DNA of 64,000 bases from Nitrosopumilus sp. (GTDB lineage Archaea; Thermoproteota; Nitrososphaeria; Nitrososphaerales; Nitrosopumilaceae), in the NCBI GenBank assembly GCA_965224195.1, contig OZ245040.1, positions 512,001-576,000 on the forward strand. Direction: 5' to 3'. Of the stretch, positions 22,919-62,963 are shown piece by piece (the first letter of the stretch is position 1; each line of letters starts with the position of its first letter). The notes under the pieces are model-generated. The model saw only the letters and a program-made list of their open reading frames with translations, did no database searches and had not been told where the DNA came from. Both the position numbers and the translations under genes were made by a program.

Positions 22919-22923
22919 TCTTT

Positions 22924-44443: not shown

Positions 44444-45286
44444 TTAGTTATCAAGCAAATTTTGTAAAGATTGGATGTTTTGTTTTTTTAATTCTTGTTT
44501 TGATTTAAGTGAAGATACAAGATGATCATATGATTTTATACCTCCTTTAAAATTTGAAAAGAAATTATCCATAAAAAGAGAATCAGTTTTGTGCTGTAGT
44601 AATTTTTCATATATGGGATTATGTTTTTTCAACGTAGAAATTGTTCTTTTGAGTGCAGTTTCAAAGATAAATTTGCTTTCTCCATTATCCCAACCACTTA
44701 ATTTCATCCATTTAATGTAAAGATCTTCAAAAATCCAAATTACATCTTCTTCAAGTTCTTTTATAGAATAGTTTTTATCTAATTTTGATAGAATTACAAT
44801 AGGATCTTTTTTCTCAATTTCGATAGTTTCTTGTACTAACAAATTCTGATCAAAACAAGGAACATTTTCTAAACTACAGCAATCCGAAAGGGCAATATCA
44901 CCTGTAATGATGCCCGCATCAGATTCAATTTTTGCTATTGCTAACAGTATAGAGTCTGGGAAATGTAGTCCTTTACTAGAATATTTTTTTTCTAGTAAAA
45001 CCGCATCAGATTTTGCTGTACTTGTCGTGGTATAATCATGAATTCTATCACCAAAAGCTTCTGTAAGGCGCTTTATCATGATGTTTTTTGTAAATCCTGG
45101 CCATCTACCTGTTGATGGTTTTTTTGGTTTGAAAAGTTCTGCAAATACCTCATTACATACAGCAATTTGACATTTTTTACCTTTAAGAAATTCTTGAATC
45201 TGCTTTTTCTTCTGGGGCTCATTAAGGGCCTGAATTACAGCATTTGTGTCAATTATAAAAAATAAATTTGTAGAATTAGAGGACAT
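44444..45286 (-). CDS. PIN-domain protein with helical C-terminal extension
   Basis: IIDTNAVI, VFAEL, LHFPDSILLAIA, IITGDIAL. Confidence 0.85.
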   Translation of the reverse strand: MSSNSTNLFFIIDTNAVIQALNEPQKKKQIQEFLKGKKCQIAVCNEVFAELFKPKKPSTGRWPGFTKNIMIKRLTEAFGDRIHDYTTTSTAKSDAVLLEKKYSSKGLHFPDSILLAIAKIESDAGIITGDIALSDCCSLENVPCFDQNLLVQETIEIEKKDPIVILSKLDKNYSIKELEEDVIWIFEDLYIKWMKLSGWDNGESKFIFETALKRTISTLKKHNPIYEKLLQHKTDSLFMDNFFSNFKGGIKSYDHLVSSLKSKQELKKQNIQSLQNLLDN

Positions 45287-45452
45287 AATTAATCCGCCTC
45301 AATTTTAGCAAAAGCATAGATTTTGAAATTTCATTAGAAAATAATCTAATTTGTCTATCCATAGGATACACCTTTTTAGTAATCTAATAGGCTTTTTCAA
45401 TTTTTTATTAATTTCTTAATATGTATGATATTCCAAAATTAAATGACATCAT

Positions 45453-46133
45453 TTGAGAATTAGTGAAATTTTTGAATCAGTTCAAGGTGAAGGAACCAAT
45501 GCTGGAAAAGAATCTATTTTCATCCGTACTGCTTTATGTAATTTAAAATGCTCTTGGTGTGATACAAAGTACACTTGGGATTGGGATAATTTTGATTATA
45601 ATTCTGAAGTTCACGACATGACAATAGATGAAATCATACAAAAATTAAAAAACTTTACTGCAAAAAATATTGTAATTACTGGAGGTGAGCCTTTGATTCA
45701 ACAAGATGAATTGATATTATTGTTATCGTCATTACCAAAAAAATTCTTTATAGAGATTGAAACAAATGGAACAATTCTTCCTTTAGATAGACTAATTCCA
45801 TTAATTGATCAGTGGAATGTTTCGCCAAAAACATCAAATTCCAATAATCTTATTGAACAATGCGAAATAGGAAACTGTTATAAATTTTTTAAAAATCATA
45901 CAAAAACCTTTTTTAAATTTGTTGTAGAGTCTGAATCAGATATTTTAGAAATATCAAATATTATAGAAAAATATGAACTGGATAAATCTAAAATTCTTCT
46001 AATGCCTCAGGCTTTGACAAAAAATGATTTAATTTCAAAAGAATCCTTAATTCAAACTTTATGTAAAAAAAATAATTTTAGATATTCATCTAGACTACAC
46101 GTTATGAGATGGGGAAATGTTAGAGGACGTTAA
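45453..46133 (+). CDS. queE: 7-carboxy-7-deazaguanine synthase (radical SAM)
   Basis: ISEIFESVQGEG, FIRTALCNLKCSWCDT, ITGGEP, IETNGT, NVSPK, RLH. Confidence 0.95.
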   Translation: MRISEIFESVQGEGTNAGKESIFIRTALCNLKCSWCDTKYTWDWDNFDYNSEVHDMTIDEIIQKLKNFTAKNIVITGGEPLIQQDELILLLSSLPKKFFIEIETNGTILPLDRLIPLIDQWNVSPKTSNSNNLIEQCEIGNCYKFFKNHTKTFFKFVVESESDILEISNIIEKYELDKSKILLMPQALTKNDLISKESLIQTLCKKNNFRYSSRLHVMRWGNVRGR

Positions 46134-46487
46134 TTATTTTGTAACTGAGCAATACGATGAACTTCCTTCAAAGAATTTTACGCTTGAAAGAGGTATTTTC
46201 CCCTCTAGATTCTCAAAAATCCATGCTGCAATATTTTCGGATGTGGGAAAATCAAACATTTTATCTAAATCATTATGATCTAATTGACCGATAACATTCC
46301 AACAGGTCTTTTTCATTTCAGAAAAATCAAGAAGCATATTTTCTTGATATGTATTTCCTTTTGGAACCACCCCTTCTACTTCAACAACTATTTTCGAAGT
46401 ATGTCCGTGTGGCTGCCCACATTTTGGATGTCCCTTTAAGGTATGTGCAAAATCAATTTCAAATTCTACACCTAGCTTTGTTTTCAT
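46134..46487 (-). CDS. queD: 6-carboxy-5,6,7,8-tetrahydropterin synthase
   Basis: AH.L..HPKCGQPHGH, LDH, PTSENIA. Confidence 0.95.
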   Translation of the reverse strand: MKTKLGVEFEIDFAHTLKGHPKCGQPHGHTSKIVVEVEGVVPKGNTYQENMLLDFSEMKKTCWNVIGQLDHNDLDKMFDFPTSENIAAWIFENLEGKIPLSSVKFFEGSSSYCSVTK

Positions 46488-46564
46488 AACATCACGGATT
46501 ATTCTAATCTATTTAGTAGTTTATTTACAGAAAAACTATTCAATGAAAATGATTATTTTAGATT

Positions 46565-47329
46565 ATGAAAATGAGTTCATGTAAAACATGTCCTTGTCCT
46601 TGTGGTTGTAAAGCATCATCTAGTACACTTGAAGAAATAGAGAAAGTGTTCGGGTGGAGGGGGAAGATAACTCAATCATATTGTAAAAAATGTAGGGGAA
46701 AACACAAACAAAATCAACCAAGTGAAACAATATCTCCAATTTATGAATTTATTCTTAAAGGAATTAATTTTGATTATCAAAATACTAGAGAATATTATTC
46801 AAAACTTCCCAAATATGATGAAATGGGACATCATCTTACTCATGAAATGAAAAATAAATTAACAAAAAAATATCTGCTTGATAAAAATAATGAATTTATA
46901 GAACATTTCTTAAAATTACTTGAGAAACCAGAAGCTAATATTGAAGAAAAATTATTTTTAAAATTCTTTAAAATGTATAATTTTCATACTAAAAAACCAG
47001 ATCATGAAAGTTTTTTTAATTTTATAATTTCATTAGGATCTAAAGAGATTGATCCTGAACAAGAATTAACTCCAAAAATGCAAACTTATGTAATTTTAAA
47101 AATTCATACAGTGATTACTAGTACATATATGAAAATTCTATCTGTAAAATTGAAAAATTCATCTGCATTCATTATTAGTTTTGTCAATGATATGAATCAA
47201 GATTTTATTAAAAATACTACTCAAATTCATATTTTAGATCGTGATATGATTAAATTTTTATTAAAAAACGAATTAATTTTGGAACCTCTGACTTTTTTAG
47301 AGATAAATCTACTTTTGGAAGTGTTTTAG
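46565..47329 (+). CDS. Hypothetical protein with N-terminal Cys cluster (Zn finger)
   Basis: CKTCPCPCGC..FGWR..QSYCKKCR. Confidence 0.6.
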   Translation: MKMSSCKTCPCPCGCKASSSTLEEIEKVFGWRGKITQSYCKKCRGKHKQNQPSETISPIYEFILKGINFDYQNTREYYSKLPKYDEMGHHLTHEMKNKLTKKYLLDKNNEFIEHFLKLLEKPEANIEEKLFLKFFKMYNFHTKKPDHESFFNFIISLGSKEIDPEQELTPKMQTYVILKIHTVITSTYMKILSVKLKNSSAFIISFVNDMNQDFIKNTTQIHILDRDMIKFLLKNELILEPLTFLEINLLLEVF

Positions 47330-47491
47330 ATGATATCTGATATTTTTCTAATTAAAATACCAAACGGTGTATAGTTACATTAAATGAAATATTCATTTAT
47401 TTGATTTATTTCCAATGAAATTTTAGTCAAGAAATATATTTTATTTTTTGATACATAATGGTTAATTCCTTCAAATAACCTATTCAAATAA

Positions 47492-49783
47492 TTGTCAAAA
47501 AATAATGAAATAAGACACCTTGATATTAAAAAATTTACGAACGATTGGAATTCTGGAATGAGTTTTGTTGATTTATCTATAAAATATAATTTGGATTATA
47601 CTGGAAAAGCCAAAAGAATTGGGGAAAAATTAGGCTTGAAAAAACAAAAAAACCTAGACTTTTTTGAACGATTTCTCACAAACCCCAAAAAAACGGATAA
47701 ATTTATCTCAATGTATAATGACGACTCCATCAAAGTTAGAGAAATAACTAAACATTTTGATTTTACAGATAATGGGTATGTTTCAAAATTAGCAAAAAGA
47801 ATTGGAATTCCTGTAAGAGCAGGAGGATATGCAAGTCAAGGTAAATTTGATAAATCTGGGAATGAATTTTCCAAAATGTGGAATGAAAATATAGATAGTC
47901 AAGCAATAATGGAAAAATTGAATATAAGTAATGCCTCTTTACATACTTGGAGAGTTAAACTAGGCTTAAAACCTAGAACTCAAGGAAGAATTTTTCCTAA
48001 CGCAATTAAAAATAAAATTGAATTATTGTTACTAGAAAATTCAGGCGCATTAACATCTAAAGAACTAAAAAAATTACTAAATAAGGATATTCTCAATTTA
48101 ACAGATGCGTGCAAATCAATGAAATTTCAAAGACTGTCTTTGACTTTACATATAACTGGAAGGCGTTCTCGTCAGCCTACGGATTATTTTGGTGACAATA
48201 CTGGTCAAACTATAATATTTTTGAATAACATGTATGATAGTTTAATTCTCAAACTATCAAAAATATTGAGGGAAGGTAATATGTATAAAAATAATTTACT
48301 AAAAAAAGCAGTTTACAAATTCATGATTTCTCGTCTTGCAGAAAATGATATTAAAATTAAAAATAGAGAATCTCAACTTTTTCAAATTCTGTATAACAAA
48401 GAAAAACAAAATGAACTTGAATCTTTTATAAAAGTACAATTGAATAAATATTCAATTAAACAAAAACCCATAAAATCAATTTCAGAAATTAAATCAAATG
48501 ATCCTCTAGTTGATCAAATTATTGAAAATAAGCCAAAATCAATATTTTATGGACGTAAATTTGAATCAGAATTCATATTAAATGAACTAGATTCAGCCTA
48601 TCCAGATCAACAAAAAATACTTGTCCAAGAAATTTTTACACCTTTTAACTTTATTTGTACCTCTTTGAATGATGGATATTTTAATTTAAAAATTACTTCA
48701 AATGAATCATTTTTAATAAGATTCATGCTTCACCAACTGATCAATTCAACTACTCTTAACATATTTCACAGTAAATTAAATGGAAAAAAAGGAATAATAA
48801 TTAATTTTGAATTTATATCCGAATCAGTTCTTAAAACAATCCCTGAAAATATTCAGATTTTTAATAAAAATGATTTATTTTCATTATTAAATTCAGTTGA
48901 ATTTTTACCAATTAAACCCAATTCATTTGCAAAAATTATGTTTGGGGAAAACAAAGATGAGATTGTTTTTTGTAATGATGTTGATTTTAAAACAAATATT
49001 GCAGCAATCAGTGATTCAAATAAAAAAATAGACAATGTTTCGATAAAATTTTTGAAGCATATTAAATTACCAAAAGAAATTTCATTTTCAGATTATTTTA
49101 ATTTCATCAAAAAATTAGACAGAATATCTGTTAATGAAAATATTTCTTCCATGGATGAATGTATTGTAGATGTAACATCAATTAACACTGGATATTGGCC
49201 TATGATTGACTCTAAAGTGGATTCTAACCATACAAAAATTTTACTTCTTCATAATTCTTCTGATCAACGTATTGGTTATGATAACTATACTACTAGTACC
49301 GGATTTTTACGAAATGCTCTAATCAAATGTAATTGTTTATCATGGATTTCTCAAGAAAATCCTATTTTGTGTAAACATTCTGTTGCATTGTTATTTCACA
49401 TGTGGAAAGGAAACATTGCAAAATTTGATTGGCACATTGAAAGGAAAACAGTTGAAGACTTTTTAGATTATGTATCTTTCTTGATAAATTATTCGATTAA
49501 AATAGAGAATTTTTGGTTTCAAAAAATTGATCATGCAAAGGCAAATTGGGATTTAATTCATCATGCAATTTGTAATCTTATTGATGGTAAAATTTTCAAA
49601 ACCCCAAATTATGAGGAATCAGAAAAATCTGAATTGGAAAATTTAATGTTTGAATACAAAAATGAAAATAATAATTTGTTTAATTCTATGACTGAAATAC
49701 ATGCTGATCAAAGAAAAATGATCCGACAATCTTTGGATTATCAATTTAAAGAAAAAATGGAAGAATTAAAAAAATCATCATAA
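47492..49783 (+). CDS. Multidomain protein: tandem HTHs, degenerate REase-like domain, C-terminal SWIM zinc finger
   Basis: Three HTH-like repeats ending (K/R)(L/I)G(L/I); SWIM CNC..LCKHSVALL. Confidence 0.65.
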   Translation: MSKNNEIRHLDIKKFTNDWNSGMSFVDLSIKYNLDYTGKAKRIGEKLGLKKQKNLDFFERFLTNPKKTDKFISMYNDDSIKVREITKHFDFTDNGYVSKLAKRIGIPVRAGGYASQGKFDKSGNEFSKMWNENIDSQAIMEKLNISNASLHTWRVKLGLKPRTQGRIFPNAIKNKIELLLLENSGALTSKELKKLLNKDILNLTDACKSMKFQRLSLTLHITGRRSRQPTDYFGDNTGQTIIFLNNMYDSLILKLSKILREGNMYKNNLLKKAVYKFMISRLAENDIKIKNRESQLFQILYNKEKQNELESFIKVQLNKYSIKQKPIKSISEIKSNDPLVDQIIENKPKSIFYGRKFESEFILNELDSAYPDQQKILVQEIFTPFNFICTSLNDGYFNLKITSNESFLIRFMLHQLINSTTLNIFHSKLNGKKGIIINFEFISESVLKTIPENIQIFNKNDLFSLLNSVEFLPIKPNSFAKIMFGENKDEIVFCNDVDFKTNIAAISDSNKKIDNVSIKFLKHIKLPKEISFSDYFNFIKKLDRISVNENISSMDECIVDVTSINTGYWPMIDSKVDSNHTKILLLHNSSDQRIGYDNYTTSTGFLRNALIKCNCLSWISQENPILCKHSVALLFHMWKGNIAKFDWHIERKTVEDFLDYVSFLINYSIKIENFWFQKIDHAKANWDLIHHAICNLIDGKIFKTPNYEESEKSELENLMFEYKNENNNLFNSMTEIHADQRKMIRQSLDYQFKEKMEELKKSS

Positions 49784-49806
49784 TCGGTAATTACACAAAA
49801 GGTTTT

Positions 49807-52323
49807 ATGCATCTAATTCATAATTTCATATCTATGCCGGTTGAAAAATACGGTTTAAAGTTAATTCCCTTTAAATCTCAAGGTTCAGAATCTGGAAAAT
49901 ATCCATTTGTTCCCTCTGAATCATTTAATAATTTAATATCTGAAATTCAAGAAATTCGTGAAGATAAAGACGCTGGCTCTATCATCTTTAGAGGCCCCCA
50001 AGGTAGTGGTAAAACTGCTACTAGGAATGGAATTTTAAATAATTTTTTACAACAAACCGATGTTGGAATAATTACCGTTAATCTTTCTTCACTTGAATTA
50101 AGAGATTTGACATGGTCAATAGCAAATAATGCCAAAAAACAGAATTTAATTGATGATAAATTTCTTAAAGAAATAGATTATGTTGAAGGGCAAAATATTG
50201 AAAGGCCCAGGTTATTAGAAATAATCATTTCAATTATAGAAAAAATTTTGTCAGTAAAGGAATTTGGTATTTTAATTATTGATGAATTTGATATTATTTC
50301 TCAACCTACTTTTCATGATACAGATAATCAAACAACTTTTCTTCAAAATATTACAAATTTTTTAAATTTGATCAGTGAATCTAAAATGGTACAAAAAAAA
50401 TCGTTTTGCACAATTCTTGCACAAACTGATAAAAGTTCTGAGGATTTTATAACATATGTCTCTAATAGACATAAACCACTTGCTTCTAGATTAAAACGTA
50501 GTGTTGATATAGAATATAATTTGGATGAAACAAAACAAATCATCTTGAACAGATTAGAATCTGAACAAATAGATGGATTTGTAAAACCTGATGGAAATGA
50601 ATTTTTTCCCTTAGATGAAAAAATAATAGAATTTCTTTTTATTGAAATTAATCAATTGACACTAAAGAAAAAAATGACTGCATTTAGAGATGTGGAACAA
50701 ATTTTACATAATTCAATTGTAAAATCTTTGGAAAAAAATTTACCAAAAGTGGATATTAATATTGTTATGGAGATCTTTAATCAGGAAAAAACAAAACTAT
50801 TTGAAATTAAACGAGAAGAACTTCGAATTAACAAAGAAACAATTATTGAGCTTGATAAATTACTCCTTGACAAGGATCACTCTGCAGCAAATAACTTGTA
50901 TCTTGATGGTATTAAAGATGGAATGACTGTTTGGGAATCACAATTATACAAAACTGTTGACTCTAATGGTGCAAGATCAAGATTAATTCCAGATAATGGG
51001 CACAGTTTATTCATTAATAGTATCAGGTTAGATCTTCAATCTAGTTCAAAACATCACAAGTCAATTTTGTGGTATGATGTTTCTAAATTTGAAAACAAAG
51101 AATTCACTGATAAGGATTTTAAAGAAATTAATTTATTTTTAGATGAAAACAAAGATGAAAGAAATGGATGCCAATTTTCAATTTTAACTATATTTTCAGA
51201 TACCCTATTAACAGATGAAATAAAATTAAAAAATGATCAAATTACTTCTATGGATGAAATCTTTATCTGTAACAATATTGTAAAAAAAGCAATCATTGGA
51301 ATAGCAATTTCTAACTCAGCAACTAAGGATGTATCGAATCCTTCAGATGATCGTGAGCAATTTAAGCCTAATTGGAATACACATCTACATAGTGTATGTA
51401 CTGATAAATTAGGAGAAACTCTTCACGATCTTGATAAAGAATTTTCAGATAAAAATAAAGTTCTTGTTCAAATTCTCTTTACAAAATCTGCTATTGGGGA
51501 AACATTCCAAAAAAAGGTTGATCTAAAAAACTTGGCAAGAGGAATTTCTAATTTGAATATTCAAGAAAACAATGTTAATGAAATCATACTATTAGGATTT
51601 TGTAATGAAGAACTACAACCTACCATTCCACGAAATCTGGTTTCACTTAAAAATTTAATCGAATTAGGAAAAACAAGTGATGAAATTTTAACATTTTTCT
51701 CTAAACCTTTTACATTTGGAGCTGCAAAATTATTAAATATTATTGATGATAATGGGAAATTAGTTAATTTTGAGAATCTAAAAAAGGAAATCGAGGATGA
51801 TTTAATTCAAAAAATGAAAGATGTTTTACCCGAGGATACTACAACTTTATCAGTTAATCAAACAATAATTAAATTACTTGTAGACGCATTTGAAAAAATC
51901 GATGAAATAACTAATTATTTAAAAAAAATAATTGTGTTGAGCTATATTCGTGAACAATCTGAAAAATCTTTGGAAGATTTATCTGTAGATTCAACATTCT
52001 CTGAATCTGGTGCTTCCACCACTGAATCTGGTGCTTCCACCACTGAATCTGGTGCTTCCACCACTGAATCTGGTGCTTCCACCACTGAATCTGGTGCTGC
52101 TGATGTTCGCGATACCGCTGTAAATAATGAAAAATCTGAAGAAATAACTCTCGACATGCTTCTAGATGTATGTAATGATGTTCTAAAGGATGGTAAATTA
52201 ACACTCAATGAATTACGCAAAAGAATTAGTATGAAACCACGTTTTGAAGACGAGACTAAATGGGTTACAAAAATTTATGCTTTAATTCGTAGTAGTAAAA
52301 TATCTCTCAGTAAAGGAAATTAA
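49807..52323 (+). CDS. P-loop AAA-type ATPase (DpdH-like position)
   Basis: Walker A GPQGSGKT, Walker B ILIIDEFD, Arg-finger-like LASRL; start possibly ATG 49834. Confidence 0.85.
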   Translation: MHLIHNFISMPVEKYGLKLIPFKSQGSESGKYPFVPSESFNNLISEIQEIREDKDAGSIIFRGPQGSGKTATRNGILNNFLQQTDVGIITVNLSSLELRDLTWSIANNAKKQNLIDDKFLKEIDYVEGQNIERPRLLEIIISIIEKILSVKEFGILIIDEFDIISQPTFHDTDNQTTFLQNITNFLNLISESKMVQKKSFCTILAQTDKSSEDFITYVSNRHKPLASRLKRSVDIEYNLDETKQIILNRLESEQIDGFVKPDGNEFFPLDEKIIEFLFIEINQLTLKKKMTAFRDVEQILHNSIVKSLEKNLPKVDINIVMEIFNQEKTKLFEIKREELRINKETIIELDKLLLDKDHSAANNLYLDGIKDGMTVWESQLYKTVDSNGARSRLIPDNGHSLFINSIRLDLQSSSKHHKSILWYDVSKFENKEFTDKDFKEINLFLDENKDERNGCQFSILTIFSDTLLTDEIKLKNDQITSMDEIFICNNIVKKAIIGIAISNSATKDVSNPSDDREQFKPNWNTHLHSVCTDKLGETLHDLDKEFSDKNKVLVQILFTKSAIGETFQKKVDLKNLARGISNLNIQENNVNEIILLGFCNEELQPTIPRNLVSLKNLIELGKTSDEILTFFSKPFTFGAAKLLNIIDDNGKLVNFENLKKEIEDDLIQKMKDVLPEDTTTLSVNQTIIKLLVDAFEKIDEITNYLKKIIVLSYIREQSEKSLEDLSVDSTFSESGASTTESGASTTESGASTTESGASTTESGAADVRDTAVNNEKSEEITLDMLLDVCNDVLKDGKLTLNELRKRISMKPRFEDETKWVTKIYALIRSSKISLSKGN
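52001..52098 (+). repeat. Perfect 21-bp in-frame tandem repeat (4.7 copies, ESGASTT)
   Basis: CTGAATCTGGTGCTTCCACCA at 52001, 52022, 52043, 52064 and a partial copy at 52085. Confidence 0.95.
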
Positions 52324-52324
52324 A

Positions 52325-53323
52325 ATGCAACTTAATAAAAAAATTATCAAAGCTCCAGCTGTAGATAATCTTAATATTCTTAAAAAAATTATTAAAAGTC
52401 TAGAGTATACCCCTATCCCATTTAGTTATATTGATGAAAGGAATCTTGAATCGCTAGAAAATAAGAAAAAAATTTCTCACCAAGTCCATGAAAGTATTAA
52501 TGAATGGAAAGATAGTCAAGAGATTTCTCATGCAAAAGGATTTTTACAATCTATTGTTTCATTATTAAGATCATTGAATATTATTTCAAATGTAAAAATT
52601 AAAAAAGAATTTTTAGATACACCACTTGGTTTTTCTGGACCAATGCTTAATACATTTTTAACAAAAAGTATTGATGCAGTTATGTTGACAAAAATTGGAT
52701 ATAGTCTTTTAGATTTATTGGAAAAAAATGATATTCAATCTAGAAATACATATGATAATATATTATTCTGGAGATTTTTACATAGTAACATAACACATAA
52801 CTTTCAACGACTTTTTGAAAATTCTGATACTTATACAAAAGGAATTGAAAAAACACTAGAGAAATTTGAAACAGATACTCGTACAAGAGGTATTTTCTTA
52901 AGTTGGATAAATTATTTTGATTTAAAAGGAATTGATGAGACTCATAGTAATTCAATTATTTTGAGCAAAAAAAAAGTTATTAAAAAAATTATTTCATCCA
53001 CTATACTTGAATTAAACACTTTAAAAATTGACATATATTCAATTGAAATACTTTCAAACCATCTTTCTCAACAACTTGATTTGTCTAATACTATCTGTGA
53101 CTTCTTATCTATTTTTGAGATTATTTTAAAACACACAAACTTATCAGATGAACAAAAGAAATCTATATCTGGAACAACATCCTCAAGAATCAGTTCACAC
53201 TTGCCAAATTTTCCTAAAATAAACATGTTAAAAATTCATAGTAGTATACCTATGGATCAAATTTTAGAAAATACTACAGACTCTGAATTTAATTCAGTAT
53301 TGAATTTTGGTGATAATGAGTGA
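52325..53323 (+). CDS. Hypothetical protein, probably multi-winged-helix
   Basis: SLLRSLNII..LTKIG and FLSWINYFDL segments; coupled to both neighbours. Confidence 0.65.
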   Translation: MQLNKKIIKAPAVDNLNILKKIIKSLEYTPIPFSYIDERNLESLENKKKISHQVHESINEWKDSQEISHAKGFLQSIVSLLRSLNIISNVKIKKEFLDTPLGFSGPMLNTFLTKSIDAVMLTKIGYSLLDLLEKNDIQSRNTYDNILFWRFLHSNITHNFQRLFENSDTYTKGIEKTLEKFETDTRTRGIFLSWINYFDLKGIDETHSNSIILSKKKVIKKIISSTILELNTLKIDIYSIEILSNHLSQQLDLSNTICDFLSIFEIILKHTNLSDEQKKSISGTTSSRISSHLPNFPKINMLKIHSSIPMDQILENTTDSEFNSVLNFGDNE

Positions 53324-56010
53324 ATCCCAAGGATATTGTAAAAGATGAAATTTATCGTATAGAAAATTCATTAATTCAACAAAAAATATTTCTTGATAAC
53401 AACAATCAACCAATGTTTATCACGAATGTGCAGATTGCGAAAGGAACTGGATTATCTGAAACAGAAGTCATAGATGTCATAACAGAATTAGCCCAAAATG
53501 AGAAAAATGAATTTATTATTTTTGATAATACTCTCGGTATTTCGGCAGATGAAAATATTCAGTTTTTTGTTAGAACAAGAATATATCATATAATATGGAC
53601 ATTGTATAGATCTGCCAGTAGAACCAGGAGTAATCCGCCTAAATTTAATATTGGTGATTATCAATATTTACGACATGTTAAACGTCGTCCAAAACAATCT
53701 GAAAATTTAGAAGATGTATTTAATGATGAGGAAATCAAAAAGAATTTTGACTATCCAAAAAATGACTTGTTCAATAAGGTTATTGCCCATATTAAAATAA
53801 ATACTAATTTCAAAAAAATTAGTAACTTTCAAAAAAAATCAACTGTTAAAATATTAAAAAATCTTGAATTAAGAAAAAAGCCAAGAGGTATTGTCTTGGT
53901 TGCTGGCACAGGTGCTGGTAAATCATTTGCATACCAATTTCCACTCTTACTTTGGATACTAAATAAAAAATTTAAAAAATTTGATGAATTCCGTAAAGGA
54001 TACATTAAGGAATCTGATTTACATGTTAATTGTACTGGATTACTGATTTTTCCAAGAAACGCTTTAGCACAAGATCAATTTGAATCCATATCCTATCTAA
54101 TTGATATTATTAATGAAGAAATTTGCAAATTCCCTGATGCAGTAGGAAGAAAATTCCTTACAATTAAAAAACCACTTCCTGACTTTCATAGTAATATTAG
54201 TGGTGATTTGAAAAACAAATATGGAAATAACTCTGAAAAAGGTTATCCTGATTTAATTATCACTCATCCCAAATCATTAGAACGTAGACTTATCAATCCA
54301 GATTGTAGTTTTGTGTATAAACAAGGAATAGATTGTGTATTATATGATGAAGTACACTTATGGGATGGAATAGAAGGGGCAGAAATTGCTTCATTAAATG
54401 CACGATTACAAAATTTATTCCAAGAAAAGTCAAATCCGCCGTTATTTGTTGGTATGTCTGCAACAATTGATCAACCTGAATGGCATTGCCAAAAATTATT
54501 TTCTTTGTTGACTGAAAAGAAACCTGAATCCATAATACAAGGAGACGATGATGATACAGTGCCTTTTTCAATTGAACATCATTTAATTCTTAAACCTAGA
54601 AGTGGTCGACCCCCAATAGGTGTTGCAATAGATACAACATCATGCTTGATACATAATCGTAGAAATGGATTATCATTATCACATGATGATGATAATTTCC
54701 CCTCACACATAGATCGAGAAAATAAAGACAAAAGTCTCACTTTTATAGATTCTTTAAATCAAACTGCAAAATTTGCTAACAAATTAAATAATTTTGAATA
54801 TTTTTGGGATGGTCATGCTCAAATAGCACGAACTTCAGGTTCCCAAAGACCATACAGATCATATCTTTATCACTATAGACCCGAGCAACGTCCACCTAAA
54901 GGAGTTCCAAACAATAAATGGACCGCCAATCATGATTGTAATGACTGTGTAAATCGAACTAGTCCAGAAATTTTTACATGTCCAAGTTATGCTCGCGGTG
55001 AATGTTGGTATTATTCTTCAGATGATGCAAATCAATTTGCAAATACCCCTTATGGAAATTGGAAACAATTAGTTCGAGGAGACAGACTAACAGTTCCAAG
55101 AGACAATATTCGTTCAATACGAGTTTCAAGTTTAGAAAACAAAAAAATTAAAAATAAATATGATTATTTTTTGTTTAAAGATAACATATGGATACCTGAT
55201 GGTAAAGTTCCTGCTTCTGTAGATATGGTTTCTGATATTGATAATATCGTGTCAACTTCCACTCTAGAAGTAGGGGTTGACTTCAAAAAGATCAAAGAAA
55301 TTATACAAGTTGGAGACATTCGATCTCCTTCATCATATAAACAAAAAGCTGGTAGAGGAGCTCGTGAAGGAAATAGTGAGGATGGGTTATTTGTAATGAC
55401 TGTTATTAATGACTCTTCCTTAGCATATTATCATTTTAAACACTTTAGTAGATTAGTGAAATCTAGTCTAGATCCACTAAAACTTGAAACAACAAATCCC
55501 AATATCATAAGATCTAATTGCTTCTTTTCAATTTTTGATTTTATGGCATTAAATAAAATTAATTTATTTAAAATTGTACGTTTAGAGGCTACAGAAATAG
55601 ATTTGGAATATGAAAAAGCAATAAAATTACTTGATGATTCTAAATTGGAAAAATATGTTGCAAGATTTCTTGCTAAATTTAACAAATCAGAAAGTAGTAT
55701 TATCCAAAAAACCATTAAAGATGTACGAGATTTTCTAGAAATACTATCAACAAAAAGAGAAGTAATTATTAATGATGTGAAAATACAACATACTCTACAC
55801 GAATGGTTGATACAATCTGTTAATAGTCTAAATACTCTACAAGAAGTTAAAAAACAATTAGGTATTGATACACTTCAAAAACAAGAAGATGCAATAGGCG
55901 ATATCACAAAGTATATGGATGAGTTAGAAACATCCTATCAAAAACAATTTCCTGATGATGATTTAATTACAAAAAAATTACATGAATTGAGGAGAGAGAT
56001 ATTTGAGTAA
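53320..56010 (+). CDS. SF2 DEAH helicase (DpdJ-N / DrmA-like)
   Basis: Q motif NFQ, AGTGAGKS, FPRNALAQDQ, DEVH, GMSATI, STSTLEVGVD, QKAGRGAR. Confidence 0.9.
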   Translation: MNPKDIVKDEIYRIENSLIQQKIFLDNNNQPMFITNVQIAKGTGLSETEVIDVITELAQNEKNEFIIFDNTLGISADENIQFFVRTRIYHIIWTLYRSASRTRSNPPKFNIGDYQYLRHVKRRPKQSENLEDVFNDEEIKKNFDYPKNDLFNKVIAHIKINTNFKKISNFQKKSTVKILKNLELRKKPRGIVLVAGTGAGKSFAYQFPLLLWILNKKFKKFDEFRKGYIKESDLHVNCTGLLIFPRNALAQDQFESISYLIDIINEEICKFPDAVGRKFLTIKKPLPDFHSNISGDLKNKYGNNSEKGYPDLIITHPKSLERRLINPDCSFVYKQGIDCVLYDEVHLWDGIEGAEIASLNARLQNLFQEKSNPPLFVGMSATIDQPEWHCQKLFSLLTEKKPESIIQGDDDDTVPFSIEHHLILKPRSGRPPIGVAIDTTSCLIHNRRNGLSLSHDDDNFPSHIDRENKDKSLTFIDSLNQTAKFANKLNNFEYFWDGHAQIARTSGSQRPYRSYLYHYRPEQRPPKGVPNNKWTANHDCNDCVNRTSPEIFTCPSYARGECWYYSSDDANQFANTPYGNWKQLVRGDRLTVPRDNIRSIRVSSLENKKIKNKYDYFLFKDNIWIPDGKVPASVDMVSDIDNIVSTSTLEVGVDFKKIKEIIQVGDIRSPSSYKQKAGRGAREGNSEDGLFVMTVINDSSLAYYHFKHFSRLVKSSLDPLKLETTNPNIIRSNCFFSIFDFMALNKINLFKIVRLEATEIDLEYEKAIKLLDDSKLEKYVARFLAKFNKSESSIIQKTIKDVRDFLEILSTKREVIINDVKIQHTLHEWLIQSVNSLNTLQEVKKQLGIDTLQKQEDAIGDITKYMDELETSYQKQFPDDDLITKKLHELRREIFE

Positions 56011-58237
56011 AATAGATGAAATAGAAAAAATTCTAGAAAATAGGTTAAAAGAAGTAGAATTTAAAAAAAGCAACTTGATTGTTAATCCATTCACTAATCT
56101 TAAAAACTCCTTAAAAGAATTTGAAGAAAGTAAAAAAATTTCTAATAAAAGTGGGATTGATATTTTCAGATTGGAATTATATTTATCTGAATTATATGAA
56201 GACTTGAACAATAGAAAGGGAAATCAAAAATCCGATGAAACATCGTTTAATGTCTTCACAAAATTACCACTAAAACCTTATGCCAAATCATCCATCGGTT
56301 CTACGGTTACGTTATCTAGAGGGACAAATTATTCTGAGGAGGTATTGCCATCAAAAACTATTTTTACACAACTTTTACCGGGTCAAGTAACACATAGGTG
56401 GGATTTCCATTCACAATGGAGAGTTCCATGTGGAAAATATTCTGAAGATTTTATTAGTCATCTTAAAGGAATTCATAAAATATCTTCAACTCCATTTATC
56501 CAACATGAAGGTAAAAATGTCCACACATTAGAAAAAATAAATGTTATGACGTTACAAGGGGTTACCAATAACTCATATGTAGATGAGAATGGTGAAGAAC
56601 AGAAAAGACAAGGAGGAATTCCTGTTTGTCCAGAATGTTTGTCAATAAATATTTCTGGGGGCAGAGTGGCAGAACAGTGTATTCATGTAAGAGATGGTAA
56701 CAGTAATCCTATAGGACGTTCCTCATTATATGCATCTCCAATTTTAGAAAATATTGAAATTAGTGGTGAGAGAGAAATATCAAAACCAAATCATTTCTCT
56801 TTCCCGTTAAATGAAATATTTGAAAAAATAGAGTTTTTAGAAAATTGTCAAATCATTACTGTTGCTACAGGTTTTAGTAGAGAAATAGGAGGTGTCTCGA
56901 TACAAGTTCAATATGATCCATATATCGGATATAAGACAGATACAAACGGATTATTATTTGTAGTAAAAGAGATTCCAGGTGATTTTGTTAAACAAGTATT
57001 AAATGATGATTTTCTTGTGAGGGATGTCATAATAGATATTCTACAAGATAAAATTCTTCATATTTTAAATAATTCGAATAAGAGTTCTTTTGAATTAGAA
57101 GTATGGCTTTCTGGACTAATCAAAGCGTTAAGACTTGATTCAATTTCGACCACCTTTGATTATTTGAACACACTTAATCAATTACATTCTGCTTCATTTG
57201 ATGATGATTTTTTAAGTTGTGTTCAAACTGAATTAAGTTATTATGAATACGAACAATTTGGCATAGATCCAACAAGAATTGCAGTAATGTCTAACGAAAT
57301 AAAAAATATCAGTATTTCAGAAGATGATTTAAAATTAAAAATTAAAAGATTGCTTAAAAATTCATTAACTTACTTAATACATCAAACAGGATTGGTTACA
57401 TCAGGTTCAACTGATCAAGATATTGGATTTATATATCCAAAAGAAAATACAAACGAAATTTTACTTTTTGATGATATGTCTGGTGGAAATGGTGCTTCAA
57501 AATTAATTAATGATTATTTGGTTGGTGTAAGCTCTTCATATTCTCCAAAGCATGGAGCACGACCCAAATATTTTCAAGAAACATTTTTTGAATTATTACA
57601 GCCATGTCCACAAGGTACTGCTGATAGAAGTTTTTTCCAAGATTTGGTTAAAATCTTTACAAATTTTTCTAACAATAATTTAATTAGTAAAAAATTTGAA
57701 GAAATTCAAGAACAACAAAATGCTTCACAAAATGAATTTGCGCAAATAAAAACTTCTGGTATTCAAAATATGTTTCCTCATTCAATTGGTAAAAGAGGAT
57801 TAATACAAAATGGAATAACAAACACAACAGAAAGTAAGAAAATTCAAGAAATTGCAAACATCTGTATCCACGGTTGTTTTGAATGTGGTCTTTTAAAGGG
57901 GAATTATTCTGGAATAAAAGGTCCTAAACTTGAGAAATTTTATGTTAGTAAATATTTACTTGATAAATACTTCAAATTTGTTACACAAAAAATTCGAATT
58001 GATATTGATACCAATACATCTGAAATAGAAAAAATTTTCAAAGAACACAAAATGATAATTATTTCACAAAAAATTGGAAATGCTAACAACATCTATCAAG
58101 TGATGTCAAAAATGAATTCATTAATTGGTGAAGAATTCGATAAAAAATTGGTGAAATTTTCAGGACTGTGGTTTGATTGTCCAATTTCAAATTCTCCAGA
58201 GGTTGAATTATCTATTTTATTGAGCGTGATTAAATGA
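56003..58237 (+). CDS. DUF1998/MrfA-like Zn-binding helicase partner (DpdJ-C / DrmB-like)
   Basis: EILLFDDMSGGNGAS followed by PC..ICIHGCFEC; internal CPEC; GAGGAG upstream of the TTG start. Confidence 0.75.
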   Translation: MSKIDEIEKILENRLKEVEFKKSNLIVNPFTNLKNSLKEFEESKKISNKSGIDIFRLELYLSELYEDLNNRKGNQKSDETSFNVFTKLPLKPYAKSSIGSTVTLSRGTNYSEEVLPSKTIFTQLLPGQVTHRWDFHSQWRVPCGKYSEDFISHLKGIHKISSTPFIQHEGKNVHTLEKINVMTLQGVTNNSYVDENGEEQKRQGGIPVCPECLSINISGGRVAEQCIHVRDGNSNPIGRSSLYASPILENIEISGEREISKPNHFSFPLNEIFEKIEFLENCQIITVATGFSREIGGVSIQVQYDPYIGYKTDTNGLLFVVKEIPGDFVKQVLNDDFLVRDVIIDILQDKILHILNNSNKSSFELEVWLSGLIKALRLDSISTTFDYLNTLNQLHSASFDDDFLSCVQTELSYYEYEQFGIDPTRIAVMSNEIKNISISEDDLKLKIKRLLKNSLTYLIHQTGLVTSGSTDQDIGFIYPKENTNEILLFDDMSGGNGASKLINDYLVGVSSSYSPKHGARPKYFQETFFELLQPCPQGTADRSFFQDLVKIFTNFSNNNLISKKFEEIQEQQNASQNEFAQIKTSGIQNMFPHSIGKRGLIQNGITNTTESKKIQEIANICIHGCFECGLLKGNYSGIKGPKLEKFYVSKYLLDKYFKFVTQKIRIDIDTNTSEIEKIFKEHKMIIISQKIGNANNIYQVMSKMNSLIGEEFDKKLVKFSGLWFDCPISNSPEVELSILLSVIK

Positions 58238-58788
58238 CACATGTTGATGAACTAAATTATGCAATGGTGGATTTTGATATATTAGCTTCAGAATTAATAA
58301 AATCTATTTTTAATAAAAATGATGATAATGAAGTTATAATAATTTCACCGTGGATGGTAGATTATGCATTACCAATGACCTGGCCCTCTTTTAGTAGTAA
58401 TTTTATTAATATTACAGATATGCAAACAACAAGTGATATTCTAAGATTACTATTGCAGAATGGTGTTTTAGTAACGATCATGTCACATTCAACTGCACAA
58501 TTAGAAAAAGATGGATGGGGTAATGTTGCTATTAGAAATGCAGTAGATTTTTCTAATAAAATAAAAGATGATGGTGGAAAAATAATTCATAATCAAATAA
58601 ATCACGGTAAGCTAACATATACTAGTGAACATGCATTAGCTGGTTCTGGTAATTATACAAATAAGGGTAGGAATCCAATATTGCAAAATAACATAGGTGA
58701 ATTAATTGTTAAAAGTAAAGATGAAAAAAGTCATGGATTAAAACATAGATGGGCTTTAGATAGACTCAAAGAAGGAAAATCCATATAA
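58234..58788 (+). CDS. PLD-family nuclease (DpdK / DrmC-like)
   Basis: IIISPWMVD, NHGKLTY..ALAGSGNYTNKG..N..E; ATGA-coupled. Confidence 0.85.
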   Translation: MTHVDELNYAMVDFDILASELIKSIFNKNDDNEVIIISPWMVDYALPMTWPSFSSNFINITDMQTTSDILRLLLQNGVLVTIMSHSTAQLEKDGWGNVAIRNAVDFSNKIKDDGGKIIHNQINHGKLTYTSEHALAGSGNYTNKGRNPILQNNIGELIVKSKDEKSHGLKHRWALDRLKEGKSI

Positions 58789-60051
58789 TTATTTCCCAAA
58801 ATAATACAAACCTAATTTTCTATCAATAGAGTTACACCATGTAGCCAATCCCAATAATAACAAAACATCTTCTTTGTCTTTCATTGAATATTTTTTTGAT
58901 TTTTTCAAATGAATTACAATATCCTCAAAGTTTTGAGGAGTATTTGACAATAGTTTTAACATGTACTTGTATTCTGGAATTTTTTCTTTTAATTTTTTAT
59001 TCAACTTTGTTTTAGCTGATCTTTTCTCCAATGATTTTAAGAACTCTTTACCTTCATTACTAAGATAGATAACACCATCACGTTTAGTTGTAAATTTTAA
59101 CAATTCTCCTAATTTTGTATAACTGCCATTTTCTGTTTCATATCTGGAGTGTAGTAGATTTTTTATGGCCATTCCATCTTTAACTGATTCTAGGAATTTG
59201 GGGAATTTTGTAACTGATATTTGAGGAGGTGTGAAATTACCTGTTACAGGACTTGCTTTTTTGTATTCACTGTTTTTTTTAGCGCCTTCTTCTGCTGCAC
59301 TAAATCCCTTATTTGAAATAATGAATGTAAAAGTACCTCGTCCTCTGTATGATAAATCCACTCTCAGAGGTAAATCATCACTTAAACCTAGTTTGACTTC
59401 TCCGCACTGAGTAACCATTTCAGTGACTGTTTTCAAATAATCCAATATGGTCCAAGTTTTCACATCTTTTTTTGGTATTTTATTTTTAAAAGACTCAAAC
59501 ACTTGACCTGAAAGATCTATTGTTTTGTGATAAGAAAATCCACCTTCTTCAGAACCTACAACAAATTTCCCATCCTCGATTCCAAAGAATATCTCTCTAG
59601 ACACTGATGATGCTTCATTAATTATCTCCAAGAATTCTTTGGATGGAATTGTGATTTCAGCATCATAATCTAAATTATTTGGTTCGGGTAGGTTGAATTC
59701 TTCATCCTCCAACCATTCTAATTCATAACGTGTTTTTTCATTATTTATAAAATTTAATGCAATGTTTTTTTTCCGAATATCAAGATTCAGTTTTTTTTCT
59801 TTTTTAATTTTTGTAATTACTTGTTTGAGCTTACCAATTTCAGCCTCTCTTGAAAATTTTTCAGAATCCCAGTTAAATCCATTAAAAAAGGTAGGTGATA
59901 ATTTAATATCCACATAACAAAAATCGTGAGGATCTATACTTCTAATCCTTACTCCGTTTTTACTAATATCAAATCTGGCTACATCTGTAAATCTTGTAAT
60001 GCCACGAAAAATGGCTTTGAATAATGCTAAATCCTCTATTCTTAATTCCAT
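58789..60051 (-). CDS. Divergent PCNA sliding clamp fused to a C-terminal putative winged-helix domain
   Basis: aa 1-247: FKAIF..VRIRSIDPHDFCYVDIKL, LPEPNNLDYDAEITIPSKEFLEII, LDYLK, LGLSDDLPLRVDL..GTFTFII; about 150 further aa with YLSNEGKEF wing. Confidence 0.85.
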   Translation of the reverse strand: MELRIEDLALFKAIFRGITRFTDVARFDISKNGVRIRSIDPHDFCYVDIKLSPTFFNGFNWDSEKFSREAEIGKLKQVITKIKKEKKLNLDIRKKNIALNFINNEKTRYELEWLEDEEFNLPEPNNLDYDAEITIPSKEFLEIINEASSVSREIFFGIEDGKFVVGSEEGGFSYHKTIDLSGQVFESFKNKIPKKDVKTWTILDYLKTVTEMVTQCGEVKLGLSDDLPLRVDLSYRGRGTFTFIISNKGFSAAEEGAKKNSEYKKASPVTGNFTPPQISVTKFPKFLESVKDGMAIKNLLHSRYETENGSYTKLGELLKFTTKRDGVIYLSNEGKEFLKSLEKRSAKTKLNKKLKEKIPEYKYMLKLLSNTPQNFEDIVIHLKKSKKYSMKDKEDVLLLLGLATWCNSIDRKLGLYYFGK

Positions 60052-61101
60052 TTATTTTCTACCAAATAATATGTTTGAAATACTATTGTATTTTTTCTTT
60101 AATTTAGCGTATTTCCATAAATAATCTAGAGAAGATGTTTTGTAAATTTCATTTAGATATTCCTCATATGCTTCTTGTCCTTTTTTGATTAGTTTTTTTG
60201 CTATTTTTATTTCATTTTTCATTACATGATCATTATGAATTGCTCTTGCTTTCCAGTCATCCCACAATGCATCTTGATTCATCCTACAAATTGGACAATC
60301 ACATTCTTGGAGTAATTTCATATCTTTTCTTTTTAATGAAACACCACCTCCAAATTTGGCGGTGTTATTCCCAACATATCTCTCAGCCGTACCTGGCAAT
60401 ACAATTTGACCAAATGCTGCTTTTCTTCTATATCCTGATGAATCTGTACTTTCTATTCCTAAATAATATCCTAAATGCAATGAAATTGGCGATGAACCTA
60501 AACCCATAATGTGAACATTGTAATCAGTATTTTTTTTTACACTTTCTACAGTATATGATAACATATCAATCAAATTTTTATTTGGTTGTCTATCTCCAAA
60601 AAATCCCGTATAGTTTGTAAATTCAGGATTAACAATACTTCCGACTGCCAAATAATCTGAATCTCCATATTTTTGAATCCATTTCAAATTTTTCATTAAT
60701 GATTTTTTATTCCAAGCATGAATTGAAGGGACTAGTTTTCCATCCAAATTTGTAGATGATTGCCAATATCGAATATTTTTTGCAGTGTCCTTCCATCTTT
60801 TTTGCATTGTTACCGCAGACATTCCATTTTTGAATGGATAGTCAAATGGAATTGTTTTATCAGGTTCTAATGTCTCTTGAATATCGATAATTTTTTCTAA
60901 ATCTAATTCCATATCTTGCATGTTTGCAGTATATGCGCCATTATCCAAAAATAATTCGCCCACCCTGTATGGTAGTTTTGGTTCATCTTTTCTGTAATAA
61001 TTAATAGCAGAATCCATGACGAAGTCTTTTCTGCGATCTGTTTTTACTGGGGCCTGTGGTTGCTCACCCATCCATAATAAGATCTCCTCCGTTCTGGACA
61101 T
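60052..61101 (-). CDS. TGT-family guanine transglycosylase (DpdA-like, no PUA domain)
   Basis: FLDNGAY, IPFDYP, VHIMGLG, STDSSGY, Zn motif CDCPIC..AIHN; 349 aa, catalytic barrel only. Confidence 0.88.
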   Translation of the reverse strand: MSRTEEILLWMGEQPQAPVKTDRRKDFVMDSAINYYRKDEPKLPYRVGELFLDNGAYTANMQDMELDLEKIIDIQETLEPDKTIPFDYPFKNGMSAVTMQKRWKDTAKNIRYWQSSTNLDGKLVPSIHAWNKKSLMKNLKWIQKYGDSDYLAVGSIVNPEFTNYTGFFGDRQPNKNLIDMLSYTVESVKKNTDYNVHIMGLGSSPISLHLGYYLGIESTDSSGYRRKAAFGQIVLPGTAERYVGNNTAKFGGGVSLKRKDMKLLQECDCPICRMNQDALWDDWKARAIHNDHVMKNEIKIAKKLIKKGQEAYEEYLNEIYKTSSLDYLWKYAKLKKKYNSISNILFGRK

Positions 61102-61129
61102 ACCAAAAAGGTATGAGTATCAGTATTTT

Positions 61130-62126: not shown

Positions 62127-62215
62127 AGTATTTTAACTTGAGGAAAATTCTCCATCATGTAATCATGTAAAATTTATTTTAAATTTTGATAAAATGTCAT
62201 TATCAAACAATGTAC

Positions 62216-62963
62216 TTAGGCCTCTTTTTGAGATTTTTGATTATCATATAGTTTATAGCTATAATCTAGAATGAATTTTCTGGGCTCTCTAAATGGGCCT
62301 CTAAATTTTACATCAATCACCTCTTTTTCTTCTTTTGTACTAGCACTCATTTCTAACACTCCATTTGCAAACCAAAGAAAATACTCTTCATCGTTTTTTT
62401 CCATGGTTCCTCTTCTCAAAAGATATAATGATTGAATTTTTCTTCTTTGTTCAAACCCCATATTATGGCGTAAGTATTGTGTTGCAATTTGAAAATCAGT
62501 AAATGCTAAAAAGTCAGATATTGCATCGTATGTTACTCGGATGCCATTACAACCTTTCTTTTCCAATTCACTCAATGCATTTTCATATTTTTTGTTAATT
62601 TCATGTGGATCGTATGAATTAGCATAGTGTAAATTGGATTCTTTCAATTTTTTGTTCCATGATTCTTTTTCAGAATCTAGAGAATAACAATCCACAAAAA
62701 TGATGTTATCAAAATTTATATTATTTTCTAAAATCTTTGTATTATTAGGATCCTCATTCTTCATTCGCTTCAGCTCTTCTTCCAACATGTCTTTGATTTC
62801 CCCAGCTGGTCGAGTAAATGTAAAATAAATTGCTCCTGATCCGTAGGATAATCCAGATAAAATAAATCTTAAAAGAATTTTCCAAGGCCGTGTTGTTTCA
62901 TCTGCTAAAATGATTATTGGAAAATAAATTTCCTTATCTTTCTTTGATAATTCTTGATTGATT
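62216..62963 (-). pseudogene. RecA/KaiC-fold ATPase-like domain protein, 5' part cut off by an IS
   Basis: Frame open up to the IS end: ..GAIYFTFTRP..IIFVDCYS..IRVTYDAISDF..FANGVLEM; no Walker A visible. Confidence 0.6.

Follow-up and report, generated by a model that had tools for sequence, protein, structure and literature searches.

The stretch of DNA analyzed in our study (64,000 nt of a Nitrosopumilus sp. genome of 2.07 Mb in 2 contigs; contig OZ245040.1, positions 512,001 to 576,000; called the window here) carries an island in which the gene of a TGT-superfamily enzyme abuts that of a PCNA-like sliding clamp and is combined with queE, queD and a helicase/PLD operon. The core island comprises 11 genes from queE through the TGT-like gene (45453-61101). 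We describe it as a genuine, conserved and mobile restriction-modification variant of the Dpd type with a presumed chemistry, and on balance we lean towards reading it as a mobile Dpd-like restriction-modification island of archaea. Both bacteria (Dpd) and viruses are known to mark DNA with 7-deazaguanine; to our knowledge, no cellular archaeal 7-deazaguanine DNA system has been characterized. In the mechanism that we propose, QueD and QueE of the island would raise the supply of 7-carboxy-7-deazaguanine, which the QueC of the host may turn into preQ0. The 349-aa TGT-like enzyme would swap guanine in double-stranded DNA for the deazaguanine base, and the PCNA-fusion clamp would hold or guide it on DNA as DpdB may do for bacterial DpdA. 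Unmarked DNA would be degraded by a DISARM/DpdJK-like complex made up of the AAA+ ATPase, the 332-aa protein, the MZB protein, the PLD protein and the helicase, which is DpdJ/DrmA-like. In this scheme we infer the substrate, the identity of the base, the binding to the clamp and the restriction of unmarked DNA.

The gene at 60052-61101 (minus strand) encodes the TGT-superfamily enzyme, a candidate DNA 7-deazaguanine transglycosylase of 349 aa with a single Pfam domain (TGT, 7.5e-15). Its AlphaFold model (pLDDT 81.2, pTM 0.81) has a TGT barrel. A Foldseek search of the PDB with this model gave arcTGT as best match (1j2b_A, 6.7e-9, TMq 0.63), next to eukaryotic and bacterial TGTs, and arcTGT was also the sole match in sequence searches of the PDB (0.27 with the single TGT sequence, 2.7e-4 with the profile). 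Moreover, D53, D220, C267, C269, C272 and H289 were invariant in 20/20 TGT-like sequences and align with the active-site and zinc-binding stretches of P. horikoshii arcTGT. We take the arcTGT counterparts of D53/D220 and of C267/C269/C272/H289 to be the catalytic Asp and Zn-site residues, respectively. Neither a PUA domain nor another C-terminal tRNA-binding extension was found in the protein. This combination of a TGT fold, the catalytic Asp pair and the Zn site in the absence of tRNA-binding domains is that of the DpdA-type proteins in the broad sense (bDpdA, DpdA1-4), of which the enzyme is a candidate member.

Its relatives are few. A profile search of 1.84 billion representatives yielded 495 proteins at E<=0.001, only 40 of them at <=1e-30, and ten more distant TGT relatives were orphans as well, far under the cut-offs of both TgtA and DpdA. 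Since close profile matches are rare and the distant relatives are orphans too, the family is, as judged from these searches, a distinct small branch of the TGT superfamily. Homologues in the phage collection were confined to genes of STSV1, STSV2 and STSV4. STSV2_15 aligns with the TGT-like protein over 204 residues (29% identity, pairwise E 1e-21), has the family motifs in common with it and adjoins STSV2_16, an ArcS2 with DUF5591 only. In the accessible part of the original report, STSV2_15 is named DpdA and the DNA of STSV2 contains 149 2'-deoxy-7-carboxy-7-deazaguanines (dCDG) per 10^6 nt (PMC10516641). Viral contigs contributed one close but truncated match and 10 distant matches at 23-29% identity, and in these sparse matches there was no sign of a mainly viral family. 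A fold search of BFVD, which does not discriminate between subfamilies, returned many viral TGT/DpdA-like folds with that of a Sulfolobales rod-shaped virus as the best (1.7e-10).

The stop of the TGT-like gene abuts the start of the clamp gene (58789-60051) with 0 gap, both on the minus strand and convergent to the effector operon, as the preliminary description of this region had stated. In its product of 420 aa, a PCNA-like clamp is fused to a helical/winged-helix domain, and PCNA_N (1.5e-6) and PCNA_C (2e-5) were matched above the Pfam cut-offs. Its model (pLDDT 79.6) consists of a PCNA fold (residues 1-245), a low-confidence linker (249-277) and a helical domain with a beta-hairpin (280-418). 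The two-domain PCNA fold was recovered by Foldseek in S. solfataricus PCNA (2ix2_B, E 1.2e-19, TMt 0.87, 249 columns). The PCNA domain shares 24% identity with the 248-aa PCNA encoded elsewhere in the genome, and a comparison of 26 fusions showed the C-terminal domain to be conserved. The fusion did not match the profile of the AAA+ ATPase in hhalign, and its residues 265-346 matched residues 9-143 of the 332-aa protein weakly (probability 31.6%, E 5e-4); given the weakness of this match we do not claim a winged-helix domain shared by the two proteins. The predicted complex of the TGT-like enzyme and the PCNA fusion scored 0.55 (runs 0.55, 0.53 and 0.64), while the best of 3 controls scored 0.00. 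Of the solved complexes 58/80 reached the mark for this score, as did 2/110 mismatched pairs, and those passing it at 0.60 or under were 7/80 solved complexes and both passing mismatches. In these runs, contact agreement was at least 55% and the pLDDT of the partner at least 79, and own alignments were used, so that the benchmark counts hold roughly. The prediction is compatible with a binding of the enzyme to the clamp and does not establish it.

The pairing of the two genes recurs in other archaea. Among the 5.8 billion proteins searched there were 172 relatives of the TGT-like enzyme, the named ones belonging to Nitrosopumilaceae, Conexivisphaerales, Nitrosocaldaceae, Verstraetearchaeota, Freyarchaeum and one WOR-3 bacterium. 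We assembled 89 loci, of which 9 came from alignment-based scans of genomes (Nitrosopumilus, Bathyarchaeia, Thaumarchaeote, Freyarchaeota, Nitrosothermus, Desulfurococcales, two Promethearchaeota, Methanomethylicia) and 80 from metagenomes, the latter being the best 80 of 128 relatives. Open reading frames (ORFs) were called in all of them and searched with iterative local hidden Markov models (HMMs) from the window proteins and from Pfam-checked neighbours. The loci fall into 74 clusters at 95% TGT identity, the counts given here are not dereplicated, and at least six archaeal lineages are represented, including Nitrososphaerota, Bathyarchaeia and Freyarchaeota. Informative loci, with at least 300 bp past the TGT stop, numbered 77. 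In 63 of these 77, a PCNA-like ORF is adjacent after the TGT gene, that is, on the same strand with a start at -120 to +150 nt from the stop, the commonest gaps being 0, -4 and +2 nt. This agrees with the partner position that the preliminary description had assigned to the PCNA fusion. Complete PCNA-like products occur in two sizes, 237-260 aa (11) and 364-437 aa (40).

The preliminary description had made its reading depend on a co-occurrence of the genes in other genomes, and besides the pair the effector set passed this test, with markers of the AAA, 332-aa, helicase, MZB and PLD genes in 25/89 loci. In 21 of these 25, the genes of the TGT, PCNA fusion, AAA, 332-aa, helicase, MZB and PLD proteins are colinear on one strand, ten loci reaching the PLD gene and eleven ending with the contig; the convergent layout was found in four loci plus the window. 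HerA and/or NurA markers were present in 24/89 loci and never together with the helicase set. The remaining 40/89 loci, mostly short contigs, showed neither effector set. The HerA/NurA loci have two forms, one with TGT, PCNA fusion, a protein of ~300 aa, one of ~1195 aa, NurA and HerA, the other with TGT, a plain PCNA of ~250 aa, DUF5591, HerA, a protein of ~1450 aa and NurA. Their large proteins (~1195 aa at L053:5845-9432 and 1452 aa at L075:6077-10435) had no Pfam match. A DUF5591/ArcS2-like gene accompanies the TGT gene in 20/89 loci and QueC or QueT in 10/89. In a Freyarchaeota locus (L019:12438-13547), a nucleoside 2-deoxyribosyltransferase (2.2e-23) and QueC (1.6e-61) follow the TGT-PCNA pair, and NurA and HerA precede the TGT gene. 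A quick maximum-likelihood tree of 71 TGTs, from which 15 near-duplicate loci and fragments <300 aa were excluded, contained a clade of six close sequences (SH-aLRT 98) with three loci of the helicase type and two of the HerA/NurA type. Because the effector sets are mutually exclusive and this TGT clade is mixed, we regard the TGT-clamp pair as a cartridge to which one or another DNA-attacking module is joined, a behaviour common among the modification modules of defence systems.

The deazaguanine genes of the island are extra copies. queE (7-carboxy-7-deazaguanine synthase, 45453-46133, plus strand) matched Radical_SAM (6.9e-14) and the QueE models of NCBIfam (4.6e-34 to 2.5e-16, all below the cut-offs), and queD (6-carboxytetrahydropterin synthase, 46134-46487, minus strand), which abuts it convergently, matched PTPS (5.4e-22) and TIGR03367 QueD (2e-21). 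A second queE, 35% identical to that of the island, lies next to queC at contig C1:117289 and a second PTPS gene at C1:1962246. As the genome holds these genes elsewhere together with a canonical tgtA and the 248-aa PCNA, the TGT/PCNA/que set of the island is, by its gene content, not a housekeeping one. The closest counterpart of the whole island was found on the chromosome of a Nitrosopumilus metagenome-assembled genome (G041, locus L016), which has the same eleven genes from queE to TGT at 45-87% protein identity, including queE (79%) and queD (85%). Two further genes of this part of the island kept their position in G041. The 254-aa protein with a Cys-rich N-terminus (46565-47329, plus strand; homologue 63% identical) had zero matches in Pfam, NCBIfam or PADLOC. 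The 763-aa protein (47492-49783, plus strand; homologue 57% identical) has a SWIM zinc finger near its C-terminus (0.0057, below the cut-off), and its homologue was not found in G042, the genome of locus L018. Local HMMs for the PIN-like 280-aa protein, QueE, QueD, the 254-aa protein and the 763-aa protein gave 0 matches in the 89 loci, the 10-kb flanks of which mostly end short of those genes, so that this is not evidence of absence.

Several observations mark the island as accessory and mobile. A search of 24 same-genus genomes found the TGT-like protein in none of them, and 16 same-order genomes gave a single weak TGT match (1.2e-5) in a 534-aa frame. The GC content is 0.25-0.30 across the island versus 0.33-0.36 in the flanks (leuS side). 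In this genome and in G041 the island adjoins leuS, in opposite orientation (window 40970-43837; G041 L113:311-3157), which points to an insertion hot spot common to the two or to an inversion. IS5 and DDE_Tnp_4 transposases flank the island, and in locus L033 a tyrosine integrase with a zinc ribbon (L033:8473-9807) is encoded directly upstream of the colinear TGT-to-PLD operon, which fits carriage on an integrative element. The IS5-family element of the window (61129-62127, plus strand; NF033579, 3.3e-45) lies outside the system in its flank. It is bounded by 18-nt inverted repeats (61129-61146 and 62110-62127), and its transposase is split into two ORFs (61208-61750 and 61766-62026). An 8-bp duplication (AAAATACT) accompanies the insertion, which falls within a conserved TATA-like box located 21-28 nt before the TGT start; the element itself lies 28 nt upstream of that start. 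When the empty site was rebuilt by removal of IS5, it matched the upstream regions of L016, L025 and L032 including the TATA-like box. The transcription of the TGT-PCNA pair may thus be altered by IS5 with the ORFs intact. Beyond IS5 there is a 190-aa ORF without family match (62216-62788), followed by the second transposase (63022-63945; DDE_Tnp_4, 4.3e-24).

The effector genes on the plus strand (AAA, 332-aa, helicase, 744-aa and 184-aa) are tightly packed with junctions of +1, -4, -8 and -4 nt, a spacing that fits coupling. The first gene (49807-52323) encodes an 838-aa AAA+ ATPase with a C-terminal helix-turn-helix-like region (AAA_22, 4.3e-7), homologues of which were found in 25 loci. 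In 17 homologues the Walker A residues G66, G68 and K69 are nearly invariant and D159 and E160 invariant. Its profile matched RFC3 (0.0016), TnsC (0.0018) and ORC4 (0.0043) in the PDB as well as a helix-turn-helix regulator (0.0023) at profile positions 735-796; to call it clamp-loader-like would be a guess. The same gene contains a perfect 21-nt tandem repeat (52001-52098, 4.7 copies, 100% matches), which encodes a seven-residue Ser/Thr/Gly-rich repeat near the C-terminus. The second gene (52325-53323) codes for the 332-aa protein, for which no family was found in Pfam, NCBIfam or PADLOC and no PDB match with the profile. Its 23 homologues are always encoded between the AAA and helicase genes, and the Atlas provided leads only (unnamed clusters 0.91, FokI recognition domains 0.88).

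The 896-aa DEAH-box helicase (53320-56010; DEAD 2.7e-10, Helicase_C) is DpdJ/DrmA-like. The PADLOC comparison proposed in the preliminary description returned DpdJ (1.8e-31), SngC (7.7e-20), BrxHI (5e-17) and DrmA (1.1e-9) for the helicase and DpdK (1.6e-4) for the PLD protein; judged by sequence, these DpdJ and DpdK matches reflect homologous domains and not equivalogs. The 744-aa protein (56003-58237) is a Zn-binding member of the DUF1998/MZB family in a DrmB-like position. MZB (PF09369, formerly DUF1998) was matched by 11/14 aligned relatives (best 5.5e-7), and seven Cys residues are invariant in the family (C209, C212, C226, C535, C621, C625 and C628). In the nearest Atlas cluster (0.92), 35% of the members have MZB, and the family profile found chance-level matches only in the PDB. 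The last gene (58234-58788) encodes a 184-aa PLD-family (HKD) nuclease similar to DpdK/DrmC. H124, K126, S138 and N140 of its H..K....S.N motif are invariant in 12/12 homologues, and its profile gave weak PDB matches to PLD4 (2.8e-4), PLD3 and BfiI (0.0061). No DrmB or DrmC model of PADLOC was matched by the island ORFs. The names DUF1998-like and PLD that had been given to the last two proteins therefore stand on the strength of the relatives and motifs, in the former case for the family, the window copy itself having no match.

The system that the island resembles most in its presumed mode of action is Dpd. In Salmonella Montevideo, which carries dpdA-K, DpdA needs the ParB-like ATPase DpdB, the closed model of which encircles a tunnel of the size of double-stranded DNA; the role of DpdB is left unresolved in the accessible part of that work (PMC10164549). 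The ring-like tunnel makes a ring-shaped partner a reasonable functional analogue, and a replacement of DpdB by the clamp would be an analogy, not a demonstrated equivalence. Both systems combine a TGT-superfamily enzyme and deazaguanine genes with a non-homologous partner that looks obligatory and is encoded by the neighbouring gene, and with a helicase/PLD restriction set of several genes, in the island with domains similar to those of DpdJ and DpdK; both lie on a genomic island of ~16-20 kb. However, the island lacks a DpdA-model match, a ParB-like DpdB and a DUF328 DpdC, its partner protein is a PCNA-like clamp with a winged-helix-type domain, its hosts are archaea, and the effectors are encoded by five genes, those of an AAA+ ATPase and of the family-less 332-aa protein among them. 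DpdB (ParB/DndB-like) was not matched by the 12 ORFs of 44444-61101 or by the two ORFs beyond IS5, and DpdC (DUF328) had no match among the island ORFs in Pfam, NCBIfam and PADLOC, the rest of the genome not having been searched. The preliminary description had reported no dpdB- or dpdC-like gene in the window, which holds for the island ORFs, the scanned part of the window. The sole strong DndB-family gene of the genome (C1:43215-44225, 5e-117) lies ~513 kb away and is possibly part of a phosphorothioation system.

Similar comparisons were made with other systems. DISARM consists of the helicase DrmA, the DUF1998 protein DrmB and the PLD protein DrmC together with a methyltransferase. A comparable trio of helicase, DUF1998/MZB-family and PLD-family proteins is encoded in the same order in the island, whereas no methyltransferase (DrmMI/DrmMII), DrmD or DrmE was found among the island ORFs, the helicase is closer to DpdJ than to DrmA, and the presumed mark is a base exchange. 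The DpdA of STSV2, which is encoded beside ArcS2, is the closest sequence relative with an experimental link, and the combination of TGT and DUF5591 recurs in 20/89 cellular loci; the viral dCDG corresponds to the product of the QueD/QueE steps that the island encodes, as far as the accessible text of PMC10516641 goes. In contrast to the island, the viral pair presumably serves anti-restriction and has neither a PCNA-like neighbour nor an effector operon, and the island in the window lacks DUF5591. BREX-related capture (BRC) is defined by PglZ, BrxC-like DUF6079, a STAND NTPase, DUF4007 and HerA, and there, too, in systems with HerA/FtsK, GNAT and TGT, a TGT homologue was recruited to defence without DpdB and DpdC, in archaea and bacteria (PMC12839542, accessible part). 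Unlike in BRC, the island ORFs had no match to PglZ, DUF6079, STAND NTPase, DUF4007 or HerA/FtsK, and PCNA does not appear in the accessible part of PMC12839542. Models of the cyclic oligonucleotide-based antiphage signalling system (CBASS) of type IV (CD-NTase, Cap9, Cap10) or of any other CBASS were not matched by the island ORFs in PADLOC. Judged by its genes, the island belongs neither to Dpd and DISARM nor to BRC; it would work most like Dpd, with a DISARM-like effector trio. The literature searched, with supplementary data outside the scope, contained no description of a TGT/PCNA-like pair, in line with the preliminary description, to the author of which no described system of this composition was known.

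A number of results weigh against a Dpd-like restriction-modification island. The TGT-like protein matched DpdA neither in NCBIfam (E<=0.01) nor in PADLOC (E<=0.1); its NCBIfam matches were TgtA (1.7e-8, far below the cut-off) and tgt_general (6.6e-6), and distant family relatives reached only 18-48 bits on the curated DpdA model NF041059, which has a cut-off of 200 bits. Its identity to STSV2_15 is only 29%, over 58% of the length, and DNA as its substrate is what we infer from the context. A complex score of the class obtained here is more often wrong than right unless the pairing is likely beforehand. By the criteria used here, an adjacent PCNA-like gene is missing from 14/77 informative loci, 10 of which carry a DUF5591 (ArcS2-like) gene; a clamp is therefore common and not obligatory for the TGT family. 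The island has queD and queE and neither queC nor folE, which leaves the inserted base unspecified. The helicase matched DpdJ of NCBIfam (1.9e-29) with 102 bits, far under the cut-off of 800, and the 744-aa protein of the window had no MZB match in Pfam. Finally, if IS5 silenced the modification while restriction stayed active, this would be self-toxic under classical restriction-modification, so that either expression persists or the logic differs. On the other side, the restriction-modification-like reading of the preliminary description gained support from the co-occurrence of the genes, from the extra queD and queE and from the STSV2 DpdA as the nearest studied relative.

Under a reversed logic, self-toxicity would not follow from the IS5 insertion. 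The clamp-borne TGT would scan DNA and remove or exchange viral 7-deazaguanines, the helicase/PLD complex would attack invader DNA that is marked or abasic, and the island would defend against modified viruses instead of marking self DNA. DpdA-type genes and deazaguanine DNA occur in archaeal viruses (accessible parts of PMC6884629 and PMC10516641), and DNA glycosylases are reported to act in antiviral defence (10.1101/2025.10.29.685425, likewise in its accessible part). We nevertheless consider such a reversal unlikely: the extra queD and queE of the island and the QueC, QueT and ArcS2-like genes of its relatives make or import a base, which is unneeded for removal. The tight and conserved TGT/PCNA pair and the weak predicted contact between its members would also be expected if the TGT attached a 7-deazapurine to the PCNA fusion or to an effector subunit, licensing or arming the system without any modification of DNA. 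A precedent is Cap10, a TGT-family enzyme which conjugates a nucleobase to a protein in type IV CBASS according to the accessible part of 10.1101/2025.04.06.647259. This deazaguanylation of a protein has a slim chance in our view, as no CD-NTase, Cap9 or other CBASS component was matched by the island ORFs in PADLOC, the partners handle DNA (clamp, helicase, nucleases), and the virus that encodes the nearest studied relative has modified DNA (PMC10516641, accessible part). That a repair or replication accessory or a second tRNA TGT merely lies beside an unrelated helicase/PLD defence operon is very improbable and already disfavored: the gene sets of the window are convergent and not co-transcribed and the best NCBIfam matches are tRNA enzymes, but 21 other loci have a co-directional operon, the TGT was not found in any of the same-genus genomes searched, canonical tgtA and PCNA are retained, and tRNA-binding domains are lacking.

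Within the restriction-modification reading, a bolder version can be formulated, which we put forward tentatively and with some doubt. A private clamp with a winged-helix domain might carry the base-exchange enzyme processively along DNA, replacing guanines with 7-deazaguanine, perhaps as dCDG, since the island brings only QueD and QueE. The pair might be a cartridge that fits two or more effector machines without relation to each other, helicase/MZB/PLD and HerA/NurA being the two seen here. If this is true, the island would provide the first case of an epigenetic writer tethered to a clamp and of a deazaguanine restriction-modification system of cellular archaea. How DpdA-type enzymes reach DNA is an open question, to which the conserved TGT/PCNA pair offers a testable answer with the clamp as the DNA-engaging partner; this would add a further role to those that PCNA has in replication and repair. 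The interchangeable effector sets would constitute a natural experiment on how different nucleases read one mark. With its occurrence in ammonia-oxidising archaea, Bathyarchaeia, Asgard and other lineages, the family may influence the virus-host dynamics of archaea in the sea and in sediments. Moreover, a deazaguanine mark may confound base-calling at G by nanopore or single-molecule real-time (SMRT) sequencing in carrier genomes.

ORF calling found twelve intact ORFs in the region 44444-61101, and together with the family searches it bore out the coordinates and the intactness of the genes named in the preliminary description. Its wording of one intact island is correct for the ORFs and has to be qualified by the IS5 copy inside the TATA-like box upstream of the TGT gene. 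The range it had given, 44444-61101, includes the core and in addition a PIN-like ORF of 280 aa (44444-45286) between leuS and queE, with a weak PIN match (0.0016, below the cut-off). This ORF has no counterpart in the island of G041, the nearest relative, which spans queE-TGT, and we therefore set the core at 45453-61101. The gene list was incomplete, as the conserved genes at 46565-47329 and 47492-49783 had been omitted. At the opposite border of the effector operon, the end of the PLD gene (58788) and the end of the PCNA-fusion gene (58789) abut convergently. Apart from the island, the GC content of the window rises to 0.42-0.44 at ~18000-23000, compared with ~0.30-0.35 elsewhere in the window.

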